From assembly GCF_003334355.1 (NCBI RefSeq), contig NZ_QOWP01000023.1: DNA of 64,000 bases. One strand, given 5' to 3'. The first letter of the stretch is position 1. Each line of letters begins with the position of its first letter. Source of the DNA: Escherichia coli (GTDB taxonomy: Bacteria; Pseudomonadota; Gammaproteobacteria; Enterobacterales; Enterobacteriaceae). The translations under genes and the position numbers were made by a program. This document shows positions 38,893 through 42,007 of this stretch, piece after piece. The notes under the pieces were generated by a model. It ran no database searches. It was not told where the DNA came from and saw only the letters and a program-made list of their open reading frames with translations.

Positions 38893-38908
38893 TGTTAGTA
38901 TTCTAACA
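38893..38908. promoter_or_regulatory. DeoR operator (deoP2, O2)
   Basis: TGTTAGTATTCTAACA, a 16-bp palindrome matching the DeoR operator TGTTAGAA-N-TTCTAACA, about 45 bp upstream of deoC. Confidence 0.65.
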
Positions 38909-39105
38909 TCTACTCCGCAACACACTTCGATATACATCACAATTAAGGAAATCTACTTACAAGTTTGCATCACTGTAATGCGATCTGGTTCAAATAATTC
39001 ACTTTCAAATGAATGCGTCAGTGGTGGCAAACGCATCAGGATCAAAGTGAACATCACGAAACTTCTTACAATGGCGCATCACCTTCGGCATAAAAGGAAA
39101 AGAAG

Positions 39106-40656
39106 ATGCCCACTTCTGATGAAAATGCACTGCAACAACGTTGCCAGCAAATTGTCACCAGCCCAGTGCTTAGCCCGGAGCAGAAGCGCCATTTTCTGGC
39201 ACTTGAAGCAGAAAACAATCTGCCTTATCCGCAGCTGCCTGCCGAAGCCCGCCGTGCGCTGGATGAGGGTGTAATCTGCGATATGTTTGAAGGTCATGCG
39301 CCGTACAAACCGCGCTATGTCTTACCCGATTACGCCCGTTTTCTGGCGAACGGTTCCGAATGGCTGGAGCTGGAAGGCGCGAAAGATCTTGATGACGCAC
39401 TCTCTCTGCTGACCATTCTTTACCACCACGTACCGTCGGTCACATCGATGCCGGTCTACCTGGGGCAACTGGATGCGTTGTTGCAACCGTATGTTAGAAT
39501 TCTAACACAAGACGAGATCGATATTCGAATAAAACGTTTCTGGCGTTACCTCGACAGAACCCTGCCAGACGCCTTTATGCACGCCAATATCGGCCCGTCT
39601 GATTCGCCCATTACCCGTGCAATCTTACGTGCAGACGCAGAGTTGAAGCAGGTTTCACCGAACCTGACCTTTATCTACGATCCTGAAATCACCCCTGATG
39701 ACCTACTGCTGGAAGTGGCGAAGAACATCTGTGAATGTAGCAAACCGCACATCGCCAACGGTCCGGTGCATGATAAAATTTTCACAAAAGGGGGCTACGG
39801 GATTGTGAGCTGTTACAACTCACTGCCGCTGGCGGGTGGTGGCAGCACGCTGGTACGCCTTAACCTGAAAGCCATTGCCGAGCGCAGCGAATCGCTGGAT
39901 GACTTCTTTACGCGCACTCTACCGCACTACTGCCAGCAGCAGATCGCCATCATTGATGCGCGGTGTGAATTCCTCTATCAACAATCACACTTCTTTGAGA
40001 ATAGCTTCCTGGTGAAAGAAGGGCTGATTAACCCTGAACGTTTTGTGCCAATGTTTGGCATGTATGGGCTGGCGGAAGCGGTTAACTTGCTGTGTGAGAA
40101 AGAAGGGATTGCCGCGCGCTACGGTAAAGAAGCCGCCGCAAATGAAGTGGGTTATCGCATCAGCGCGCAACTGGCGGAGTTTGTCGCCAATACCCCCGTG
40201 AAATATGGCTGGCAAAAACGCGCCATGTTACACGCACAGTCGGGGATCAGTTCCGATATCGGCACCACGCCGGGCGCGCGTTTACCCTATGGCGATGAGC
40301 CAGATCCGATCACCCATCTGCAAACTGTCGCCCCGCATCATGCTTATTATTATTCCGGCATCAGCGACATTCTGACGCTCGACGAAACCATCAAACGTAA
40401 TCCGCAGGCGCTGGTACAGCTTTGCCTCGGTGCCTTTAAAGCCGGAATGCGTGAATTTACCGCCAATGTCAGCGGTAACGATCTGGTTCGCGTTACCGGT
40501 TATATGGTGCGTTTGTCGGATTTAGAAAAATATCGCGCCGAAGGTTCACGCACCAACACCACCTGGCTGGGCGAAGAAGCCGCACGCAACACTCGTATTC
40601 TGGAACGCCAGCCGCGCGTGATAAGCCATGAACAGCAGATGCGCTTTAGTCAGTAA
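39106..40656 (+). CDS. yjjI: Glycyl-radical-enzyme-like protein YjjI
   Basis: 516-aa ORF; C-terminal RVTGY motif (variant of the glycyl-radical fingerprint RVSGY). Confidence 0.9.
39492..39507. promoter_or_regulatory. DeoR operator (deoP1, O1) inside the yjjI coding sequence
   Basis: Perfect palindrome TGTTAGAATTCTAACA; centre is 599 bp from the O2 centre, matching the known O1-O2 spacing. Confidence 0.65.
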
Positions 40657-41491
40657 GATTATCCCCTTCTCCTGCGTTGACGGGCCAGGCAGTCGTCTGG
40701 CTCTGTTTTTGCAGGGCTGCAATCTGCGCTGCAAAAACTGTCACAATCCGTGGACGATGGGGCGCTGTAATCATTGCGGAGAGTGCGTGCCACAGTGTCC
40801 GCATCAGGCGTTGCAGATTGTTGACGGCAAAGTGGTGTGGAACGCTGCGGTCTGCGAGCAGTGTGATACCTGCCTGAAGAGGTGTCCGCAACATGCCACG
40901 CCGATGGCGCAATCCATGAGCGTGGACGAAGTGCTTAGCCATGTCCGCAAAGCGGTGCTGTTTATTGAAGGGATAACGGTAAGCGGCGGCGAAGCCACGA
41001 CCCAACTGCCGTTTGTAGTGGCGCTGTTTACTGCTATCAAAAACGATCCGCAACTGCGCCATCTCACCTGTCTGGTGGACAGTAACGGCATGTTGAGCGA
41101 AACCGGCTGGGAAAAATTACTCCCGGTGTGTGACGGCGCAATGCTCGATCTCAAAGCATGGGGTAGCGAATGTCATCAACAATTAACCGGACGCGATAAT
41201 CAGCAGATTAAGCGCAGCATCTGTTTGCTGGCAGAGCGCGGCAAGCTGGCGGAACTGCGTTTGCTGGTAATCCCTGGCCAGGTGGATTATTTGCAACACA
41301 TCGAAGAACTGGCGGCGTTTATCAAGGGACTTGGCGATGTTCCGGTACGCCTGAACGCGTTTCATGCCCACGGCGTGTATGGCGAGGCGCAAAGCTGGGC
41401 GAGCGCCACGCCGGAAGACGTTGAGCCGTTGGCTGATGCATTAAAGGTGCGCGGGGGGGGCCGGTTGATATTTCCGGCGCTGTATTTGTGA
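40628..41491 (+). CDS. yjjW: Radical SAM glycyl-radical activating enzyme YjjW
   Basis: 287-aa ORF with CNLRCKNC (CX3CX2C) radical-SAM motif plus two ferredoxin-like Cys clusters ([24 protein letters not shown]); overlaps the yjjI 3' end. Confidence 0.9.
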
Positions 41492-41493
41492 CA

Positions 41494-41998
<505 letters not shown>

Positions 41999-42007
41999 AA
42001 GGGTAAA

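Follow-up and report, generated by a model that had tools for sequence, protein, structure and literature searches.

The yjjI-yjjW locus of Escherichia coli

We analysed a 64,000-nucleotide stretch of Escherichia coli chromosome (contig NZ_QOWP01000023.1, hereafter the window) and describe here one gene pair within it, yjjI and yjjW, whose products are a putative glycyl radical enzyme (GRE) and its putative radical S-adenosylmethionine (SAM) activase. The initial annotation of this DNA, made from the sequence alone, had placed two overlapping open reading frames (ORFs) here, noted a C-terminal RVTGY motif in the first and a CX3CX2C motif plus two ferredoxin-like Cys clusters in the second, and described the pair as known rather than new. 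The ORF boundaries that it gave are exact, and each of the motifs is present (Table 1). RefSeq labels the genes "yjjI: YjjI family glycine radical enzyme" and "yjjW: YjjW family glycine radical enzyme activase"; the pair and both families are already catalogued, and the pair itself is not new.

The 2386-bp stretch that spans the two genes matches 5424 of 5426 complete E. coli genomes, usually with one copy per genome and at 95-99.9% identity, and yjjI and yjjW are core E. coli genes. Relative to K-12, YjjI differs at 2 residues (19 nucleotide differences) and YjjW at 5 (30 nucleotide differences); so few residue changes per nucleotide change are the pattern expected under purifying selection. 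The short overlap between the end of yjjI and the start of yjjW likely couples their translation, and in distant lineages the corresponding genes likewise overlap or are separated by very short gaps. The pair is flanked upstream by the divergent deoCABD genes, and downstream by an array of repetitive extragenic palindromic (REP) sequences, followed by the convergent genes yjjV, yjjU, and osmY.

Table 1. Positions in the window of the yjjI and yjjW genes, their predicted catalytic motifs, and nearby regulatory elements
Feature	Position	Strand	Remarks
DeoR operator O2 of deoP2, TGTTAGTATTCTAACA	38893..38908	.	1 mismatch; upstream of yjjI promoter; conserved in enterobacterial genera
FNR-type site, CGCATCAGGATCAA	39032..39045	+	right half GGATCAA (39039-39045) invariant in 15 genera
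Predicted -10 hexamer of yjjI promoter, TACAAT	39067..39072	+	T, A, A, and T invariant in 15 genera
Shine-Dalgarno-like sequence, AAGGAA	39094..39099	+	6 nt before yjjI ATG; AGGA conserved
yjjI coding sequence (CDS)	39106..40656	+	516 aa; predicted minimal glycyl radical enzyme, YjjI family
DeoR operator O1 of deoP1, TGTTAGAATTCTAACA	39492..39507	.	perfect palindrome, inside yjjI CDS
Cys loop S235-C236-Y237-N238	39808..39819	+	C236 is the predicted thiyl-radical Cys; aligns with PflB C419
Glycyl-radical motif R462-V-T-G465-Y466	40489..40503	+	predicted radical glycine G465; R462 and G465 invariant; aligns with PflB RVSGY
Overlap of yjjI 3' end and yjjW 5' end	40628..40656	+	29 nt
yjjW CDS	40628..41491	+	287 aa; predicted radical-SAM activase; TIGR04041, Radical_SAM and Fer4 domains
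YjjW C31-X3-C35-X2-C38	40718..40741	+	radical-SAM [4Fe-4S] motif; Pfam Radical_SAM and Fer4_12
YjjW ferredoxin-like insert, two CX2CX2CX3C	40766..40885	+	C47/C50/C53/C57 and C76/C79/C82/C86

YjjI and YjjW as a probable glycyl radical enzyme and its activase

The YjjI protein matches TIGR04040 with 788.2 bits (cut-off 498.3) over residues 11-504, and PF11230 with 732 bits. No significant Pfam match to PF02901 (PFL-like) or PF01228 (Gly_radical) was found, and the only other entry was NRDD (PF13597) at E 0.61; some YjjI relatives do match PF02901 and PF13597. A phmmer search with YjjI against all Protein Data Bank (PDB) sequences returned no GRE. The profile of the family, however, matches PflB (E 3.7e-4), placing YGVVSC236 on YAIAC418C419 and RVTGY on RVSGY (G734), and it also matches YbiW, HPAD, and one NrdD at E 6e-4 to 4e-3. 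Because a plain sequence search of solved structures finds no GRE, this kinship is visible only with profiles or structure. Structure prediction gave, with high confidence, a full ten-stranded alpha/beta barrel of the kind seen in pyruvate formate-lyase (PFL) and ribonucleotide reductase (RNR). The initial annotation had pointed to PflB/GrcA-type folds for comparison: the GRE barrel was recovered, but the nearest fold is that of class III RNR, not PflB or GrcA.

The family is small. A scan of 1.84 billion representative proteins found 542 clusters (50% identity) at E<=0.001. Many of these are fragments; full-length clusters number about 25, at 30-57% identity. Members occur in roughly 600 or more species and are common in Lachnospiraceae-type gut genomes. 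Loci were gathered by exact-protein look-ups of distant representatives, a species-level genome scan, a metagenome scan seeded with a distant clade, and annotated E. coli records. The alignment of 26 sequences described below was too diverse for the locus scan, and narrower alignments were used instead. The genome scan gave mainly close enterobacterial relatives, and the distant contexts came from the look-ups and the one metagenome scan. Altogether, 180 loci were collected; ORFs were clustered for the 88 that have a YjjI gene, and these fall into 28 YjjI lineages (single linkage, 65% identity). One pair lies on an archaeal-looking contig (Ga0314843_0000058; loci L097/L098), near genes for eIF-1A, eIF-2B, NMD3, and RIO1 and beside an AdoMet decarboxylase gene, so the family is not confined to bacteria.

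In the alignment of 26 sequences (30-90% identity), G83, G120, D123, L174, C236, E305, G418, R462, and G465 are invariant. Across the 28 lineages, represented by 78 distinct sequences, 33 residues are invariant; they include S235, C236, N238, E305, R462, and G465, and also H159, N186, R251, H376, Q378, and R392. The only invariant Cys in the 78 sequences is C236; residue 58 is Cys in 73 of them and aligns with a His of NrdD. Conserved basic residues are found at R70, K213, R251, and R392. The radical glycine, on which the initial annotation had made its reading depend, is thus kept in alignment with bona fide GREs.

YjjW matches TIGR04041 with 397.1 bits (cut-off 250.2), and its next-best models are the activases of HypD, sulfopropanediol dehydratase, PFL, indoleacetate decarboxylase, and CutC. 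Its N-terminus carries a VDGPGSR motif, and motifs of this type are typical of glycyl-radical activases. The model for PflC/PflE-type activases (TIGR02494) scored 136.1 bits, below its cut-off of 174.35, with both CX2CX2CX3C motifs present, and two NrdG models reached 46.8 and 62.9 bits (cut-offs 126 and 131). A YjjW-type gene adjoins yjjI in 24 of the 28 lineages, on the same strand in 70 of 70 cases. The fold, the invariant Gly and Cys, and the adjacent, co-conserved radical-SAM activase all point the same way: YjjI and YjjW are very probably a real GRE and its dedicated activase, as had been read from the motifs.

Two architectures occur within the YjjW clade. Most members have about 280-306 aa and both CX2CX2CX3C motifs, and others have about 229-251 aa and no such motifs. 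The short, insert-free activases (L082, L090, L097, L121, L153, and part of lineage 3) include archaeal and actinobacterial members.

Nucleoside genes around the pair

Besides YjjW, the only gene families that recur next to YjjI are those of nucleoside uptake and catabolism, namely a BMP-type ATP-binding cassette (ABC) transporter, Udp, DeoD, Cdd, Add, DeoB, DeoC, ribokinase, and nucleoside hydrolase. In lineage 1, which comprises 18 loci with relatives named Lachnospiraceae, Clostridiales, or Eubacteriales, the genes for the binding protein and the ATPase of a nucleoside transporter enclose the pair. The order of the operon is shuffled within this lineage, and the pair retains that position through the rearrangements, beside the transporter and the Deo genes. 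One such locus (L172) encodes, on one strand, Udp, DeoD, a BMP-family binding protein, YjjI, YjjW, the ABC ATPase, two permeases, Cdd, DeoC, and DeoB; another (L134) also has Add and PunA (NCBIfam). Lbp of Clostridium thermocellum (PDB 7x0r) shares about 90% identity with the BMP protein encoded next to YjjI in L172. The 1.5-A crystal structure of Lbp held endogenous guanosine, deletion of the transporter still allowed growth on laminaribiose, and the legend of the gene-cluster figure for Lbp names genes "hp" and "rsam" (PMC9601137). Because of the synteny with L172, we infer that "hp" and "rsam" are the C. thermocellum homologues of YjjI and YjjW.

Other lineages reach a similar gene content by different arrangements. 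A BMP-type ABC transporter adjoins the pair in lineages 6, 14, and 17. Locus L092 encodes a RihC-like hydrolase, an ADP-ribosylglycohydrolase-like protein, a ribokinase-like kinase, DeoD, a sulfatase-like protein, YjjI, YjjW, a major facilitator superfamily (MFS) protein, BMP, and ABC, in that order, and L089 encodes a nucleoside hydrolase fragment, a PfkB kinase, YjjW, and YjjI. In lineage 3, the gene directly upstream encodes either an equivalog-level ribokinase (335 bits, cut-off 299.65) or a LacI-family regulator, whose best matches (CcpA, UriR, RbsR, and CytR) are all below cut-off, and a nucleoside hydrolase gene lies downstream. The order in Gilliamella is Add, CpdB, Cdd, Pdp, YjjI, YjjW, and in Enterobacteriaceae and Hafnia deoCABD is divergent from the pair.

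At least one nucleoside marker lies within 6 kb of the pair in 10 of the 22 lineages with at least 6 kb of flank, and a strict count, which requires more than a lone kinase or permease, gives 7 of 22. Binomial p-values for the two counts are 4e-8 and 7e-5 at an assumed background of 5%, and 2e-5 and 4e-3 at an assumed 10%, the background rate being an assumption and the 22 lineages not fully independent. This qualification weighs against a link with nucleosides, and so do several of the contexts themselves. The other 12 long-flank lineages have no nucleoside marker. No nucleoside genes lie near the pair in Providencia, Ferrimonas, an Ilumatobacteraceae-type actinobacterial clade, or the archaeal contig; the Proteus pair retains its serB-radA-nadR side with no deo genes nearby; the Aliivibrio pair lies beside gnt/edd/eda; and L096 has the pair with MFS and GDPD genes. 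The enterobacterial adjacency to deo is one inherited arrangement and counts as a single event. Among lineages without nucleoside genes, no downstream family recurs, the genes found there encoding membrane proteins, a PHP-type phosphatase, RuvAB/QueA/Tgt, and regulators.

These contexts could also mean that YjjI is a real GRE whose substrate has nothing to do with nucleosides, with the nucleoside genes present through hitch-hiking or with substrates that are clade specific (a sugar acid, a glycerophosphodiester product, or another small anion). Heterogeneous neighbourhoods such as those of Aliivibrio, L096, and the archaeal contig, the bland actinobacterial and Ferrimonas loci, and the marker-free majority of long-flank lineages would all fit, as would R70, K213, R251, and R392, which would suit any anionic substrate. 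However, nucleoside genes recur in at least seven differently arranged lineages, both Firmicutes-like and proteobacterial, the pair in lineage 1 stays inside the nucleoside transporter gene set through rearrangements, and other functional themes recur in at most one or two lineages. We therefore regard an unrelated substrate as unlikely and, on balance, favor a link of the pair to nucleoside or pentose catabolism. The context suggests a role for yjjI-yjjW in anaerobic nucleoside breakdown, which is proposed here for the first time. The initial annotation had listed a comparison of genomic context as a check; made here, it went beyond that annotation in uncovering the nucleoside-catabolism context and the FNR/DeoR promoter architecture described below.

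In one lineage 6 locus (L121 11-1588 and 2600-3247), the block formed by the BMP transporter, YjjI, and YjjW is immediately preceded by a second radical-SAM gene, which is NrdG-like, and endonuclease IV-like and endonuclease III-like genes were recognized by inspection of the sequence in that upstream region.

Comparison with known glycyl radical enzymes

Judged by its sequence, YjjI appears to be a separate, minimal GRE branch: other GREs exceed it by about 200-300 residues, and it has an active-site signature of its own. The class III RNR NrdD, whose fold is nearest, carries a C-terminal four-Cys Zn ribbon before the glycyl loop and an N-terminal ATP cone. An hhalign comparison of the YjjI family with E. 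coli NrdD gave E 6.8e-5 over 406 columns. YjjI is about 200 residues shorter (516 versus 712 aa), and in this alignment the second catalytic Cys of NrdD (C175 in E. coli) falls in a gap of YjjI (PRY--VLPDY). The Zn ribbon is not present, a single Cys (C440) occurring in the last 186 residues of YjjI, and neither an ATP cone in Pfam nor an NrdD match in NCBIfam was found. The activases differ as well: that of class III RNR is NrdG-type, whereas YjjW is larger, appears to be of PflC/E type, and has two ferredoxin-like clusters. The neighbours of the YjjI pair are catabolic genes, not genes of deoxynucleoside triphosphate (dNTP) synthesis.

These differences bear on the possibility that YjjI is a cryptic NrdD-like reductase, which would convert a ribonucleoside, ribonucleotide, or ribose phosphate to its 2-deoxy form with formate, for cleavage by DeoC. 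The hhalign match, which takes in GDIH-x-HD-like and G-x-x-x-L-x-x-LNL segments, would agree with such an enzyme, as would the Pfam NRDD matches of YjjI relatives and the position of DeoC and DeoB, which are co-operonic in lineage 1 and adjacent in enterobacteria. The gap at C175 and the status of C236 as the sole invariant Cys argue against it, as do the missing Zn-ribbon Cys set and ATP cone, the shorter chain, and the apparent PflC/E-type character of YjjW, whose NrdG scores lie far under the cut-offs. Moreover, E. coli without nrdAB, nrdEF, and nrdDG still requires external deoxynucleosides (PMC10121223), which speaks against YjjI as a back-up RNR, although YjjI would be inactive in air and may not have been active under the conditions used. 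A cryptic reductase is thus distinctly less probable than a substrate unrelated to nucleosides.

Other GREs differ from YjjI in other ways. PflD and YbiW, activated by PflC and YbiY, respectively, exceed YjjI by about 250-300 residues; YjjI has no match to PF02901/PF01228, and its Cys loop reads S-C-Y-N. The gene context of PflD and YbiW is one of phosphotransferase system (PTS) and anhydro-hexitol genes, whereas that of yjjI is one of nucleoside genes. Both E. coli enzymes already have assigned reactions, reported as ring-opening C-O cleavage of anhydro-hexitol phosphates in the work of Ma et al. as it is cited in PMC12441222; the substrates are 1,5-anhydromannitol-6-phosphate and 1,5-anhydroglucitol-6-phosphate. 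PflB needs the adjacent C418-C419 pair, where YjjI has S235-C236 with S235 invariant; phmmer finds no similarity between the two proteins, and PflA is without the ferredoxin insert present in YjjW. The GRE eliminases (glycerol and propanediol dehydratases, HypD, CutC, and IslA) have a conserved Glu two residues after the catalytic Cys, giving C-x-E, whereas YjjI has C236-Y237-N238 with N238 invariant. YjjI does have another invariant acidic residue, E305. No microcompartment genes were seen near the pair in the loci examined.

Promoter and anaerobic control

The deoC-yjjI intergenic region was aligned across 15 genera, from Escherichia to Hafnia. Upstream of yjjI, the right half of an FNR-type site and a predicted -10 hexamer are both conserved (Table 1), and the gap between GGATCAA and the hexamer is fixed at 21 bp in all 15 genera. 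Taking the transcription start to be about 7 nt past the hexamer, the FNR-type site would be centred at about -41.5, and a centre near -41.5 is the classical class II FNR position. When the full FNR palindrome was sought in this promoter, only the right half-site fitted the consensus. A generic promoter and terminator scan gave nothing above shuffle expectation, and Rfam searches of nine distant loci and the window gave no riboswitch or leader upstream of yjjI.

Published data place yjjI in FNR Category 1, with a chromatin immunoprecipitation (ChIP) peak and FNR-dependent anaerobic induction (Myers et al., PMC3688515); the peak centre is at 4,615,181 in U00096.2 (PMC3688515). In Yersinia intermedia, yjjI and yjjW are both induced anaerobically (PMC3792023). 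The promoter, with its conserved FNR half-site, agrees with the published FNR ChIP and expression data. If the lengths of the two genome versions differ by 1,977 bp, as we take them to, the peak maps to about 39013, some 25 bp from the conserved site. The pair would form a functional two-gene operon that FNR switches on anaerobically; this is part of the full explanation given below, for which the chances appear even.

The yjjI promoter also lies within the regulatory region of deo. A 16-bp DeoR palindrome occurs twice in the window, the two copies exactly 599 bp apart, which we take to be the O2-O1 spacing of deoP2 and deoP1. Within yjjI, O1 is conserved (+368 to +386) in every one of the 15 genera with an adjacent deoC, and it is absent from yjjI in Proteus, Providencia, and Gilliamella, where deoC is not adjacent. 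Since O2 and O1 bracket it, the yjjI promoter lies inside the DeoR loop; because O1, the deoP1 operator, is inside yjjI, deoP1 transcripts must run antisense through the first ~390 nt of yjjI and its promoter. DeoR, CytR, or CRP may also control yjjI; for DeoR and CytR the case is one of geometry only, which counts against the full explanation given below.

Two CRP-like sites in the intergenic region (38926-38941 and 38979-38994) are conserved across genera. ChIP of CRP in enterotoxigenic E. coli (ETEC) gave one site between yjjI and deoC and another peak inside yjjI (PMC4287617), and one of the two CRP-like sites matches the intergenic ChIP site. Both are most likely the CRP/CytR elements of deoP2 and deoP1. 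The O1 operator encodes a variable loop of YjjI, residues ~129-134.

The only functional proposal for YjjI in the searchable literature is a co-expression guess of "nitrogen metabolism" (PMC3228777). This would have YjjI act in nitrate, nitrite, or nitric-oxide (NO) metabolism, as proposed from co-expression with narG-type genes: in E. coli and Salmonella, yjjI falls into a multi-species bicluster together with genes for nitrate and nitrite, and FNR- and Nar-like motifs were found for the bicluster taken as one set (PMC3228777). In addition, yjjI is directly FNR-activated (PMC3688515). However, FNR control is generic among anaerobic genes, and a scan of the yjjI promoter region turned up neither an exact NarL heptamer nor an NsrR match with fewer than 2 mismatches. 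Furthermore, NO is reported to inhibit glycyl radical enzymes and activases (2025 preprint, bioRxiv 10.1101/2025.02.23.639758). No nar, nir, nrf, hcp, or related gene lies beside the pair in the 28 lineages, and the gene context does not support the proposal. We know of no glycyl radical enzyme that handles nitrogen oxides, and consider a role in their metabolism highly unlikely.

That YjjI is a decayed or non-catalytic relic, or a GrcA-like spare part, without an enzymatic role is extremely improbable. In favor of this reading, no phenotype or activity has been published, YjjI is ~250 residues shorter than typical PFL-like enzymes, and some E. coli assemblies have shortened variants (P0011, P0083, and P0111). 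Against it, structure prediction confidently gives a full barrel, the 28 lineages share 33 invariant residues, the activase is co-conserved, >99.9% of E. coli genomes keep an intact yjjI, which is under purifying selection, and GrcA-type spare parts are ~127-aa C-terminal modules rather than whole barrels.

Proposed reaction of YjjI

The explanation that best accommodates these results is an FNR-induced GRE and activase that act on a nucleoside or its pentose; taken whole, we judge it about as probable as its failure in some part. From what is known of the enzyme family, YjjW would bind SAM on its CX3CX2C [4Fe-4S] cluster and cleave it reductively, and the resulting 5'-deoxyadenosyl radical would abstract hydrogen from YjjI at Gly465. 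With every turnover, the radical would move from this glycine to Cys236, in the middle of the barrel, giving a thiyl radical that would abstract a hydrogen atom from the substrate. The gene neighbourhoods suggest that a nucleoside could be this substrate, though the pentose or pentose phosphate released from the nucleoside is more likely, since ribokinase, the phosphorylases with DeoB, and the nucleoside hydrolases have (deoxy)ribose phosphate in common. Many invariant basic residues of YjjI would suit a phosphate ester.

Hydrogen abstraction might occur at a ribose carbinol carbon and be followed by loss of the neighbouring OH, base, phosphate, or ring oxygen. Such an elimination would resemble the first half of the RNR reaction and the sugar-phosphate cleavage of PflD and YbiW, and its product would feed a Deo-type lower pathway during anaerobic nucleoside fermentation. 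By exclusion, a redox-neutral radical elimination would be the most likely chemistry, because YjjI lacks reductase features and only one of its Cys residues is conserved. That YjjI is an eliminase rather than a reductase is nonetheless a tentative assignment, to which we give somewhat less than an even chance: it is reached by exclusion, and the Cys loop is C-Y-N and not C-x-E. A further difficulty is that E. coli has complete pentose phosphate and Deo pathways, which leaves no obvious metabolic gap for YjjI to fill.

More speculatively still, YjjI may carry out an undescribed radical reaction on ribose, either dehydration of a pentose phosphate or cleavage of a glycosidic C-N or a C-O bond, and so provide an oxygen-sensitive route of nucleoside fermentation. 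If so, the route would either stand apart from the pentose phosphate pathway or supplement it. It would be widespread among Enterobacteriaceae and gut Clostridia (Lachnospiraceae and C. thermocellum relatives), and co-regulated with deoCABD in E. coli through the DeoR loop.

GREs of the gut perform hard anaerobic chemistry, including conversion of choline to trimethylamine (TMA), hydroxyproline dehydration, sulfonate cleavage, and anhydro-sugar cleavage. The reaction of YjjI was called undefined in the initial annotation, and we found no functional study or assigned reaction for YjjI or YjjW in the searchable literature; a 2025 list of E. coli glycyl radical enzymes leaves YjjI out (bioRxiv 10.1101/2025.02.23.639758). 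The nucleoside context, the NrdD-like, single-Cys anatomy, and the FNR/DeoR promoter layout make the reaction directly testable, and a nucleoside or pentose link cuts the substrate candidates to roughly a dozen commercially available compounds. If confirmed, the proposal would add a new reaction to gut nucleoside fermentation, and the GRE superfamily would gain a new minimal scaffold lying between its RNR and PFL-like branches.

Other features of the locus

Plasmid-typed records account for 3 of the 5427 yjjI-yjjW matches among complete E. coli genomes, and the region is absent from 2 genomes. A 574-aa database protein (P0004), encoded on a 2.9-kb contig, joins a YjjI-like domain (100% identity over 91% of the query) to a DeoC/LacD aldolase domain (PF01791); this fusion probably arose as an artefact of assembly or gene calling where deoC and yjjI diverge. 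A run of eight consecutive G residues close to the yjjW 3' end (41453-41460) encodes R-G-G-G and could be prone to slippage; since residues 277-278 of K-12 YjjW are V-S where this strain has G-G, the run is strain-specific. The gap between yjjW and yjjV (41495-41999) holds about five tandem 101-bp units of the REP/bacterial interspersed mosaic element (BIME) type, a direct-repeat family with 101-bp spacing. On the minus strand, four of these units exceed the Rfam gathering score for naRNA4 (RF02564); a fifth, partial copy falls below it.

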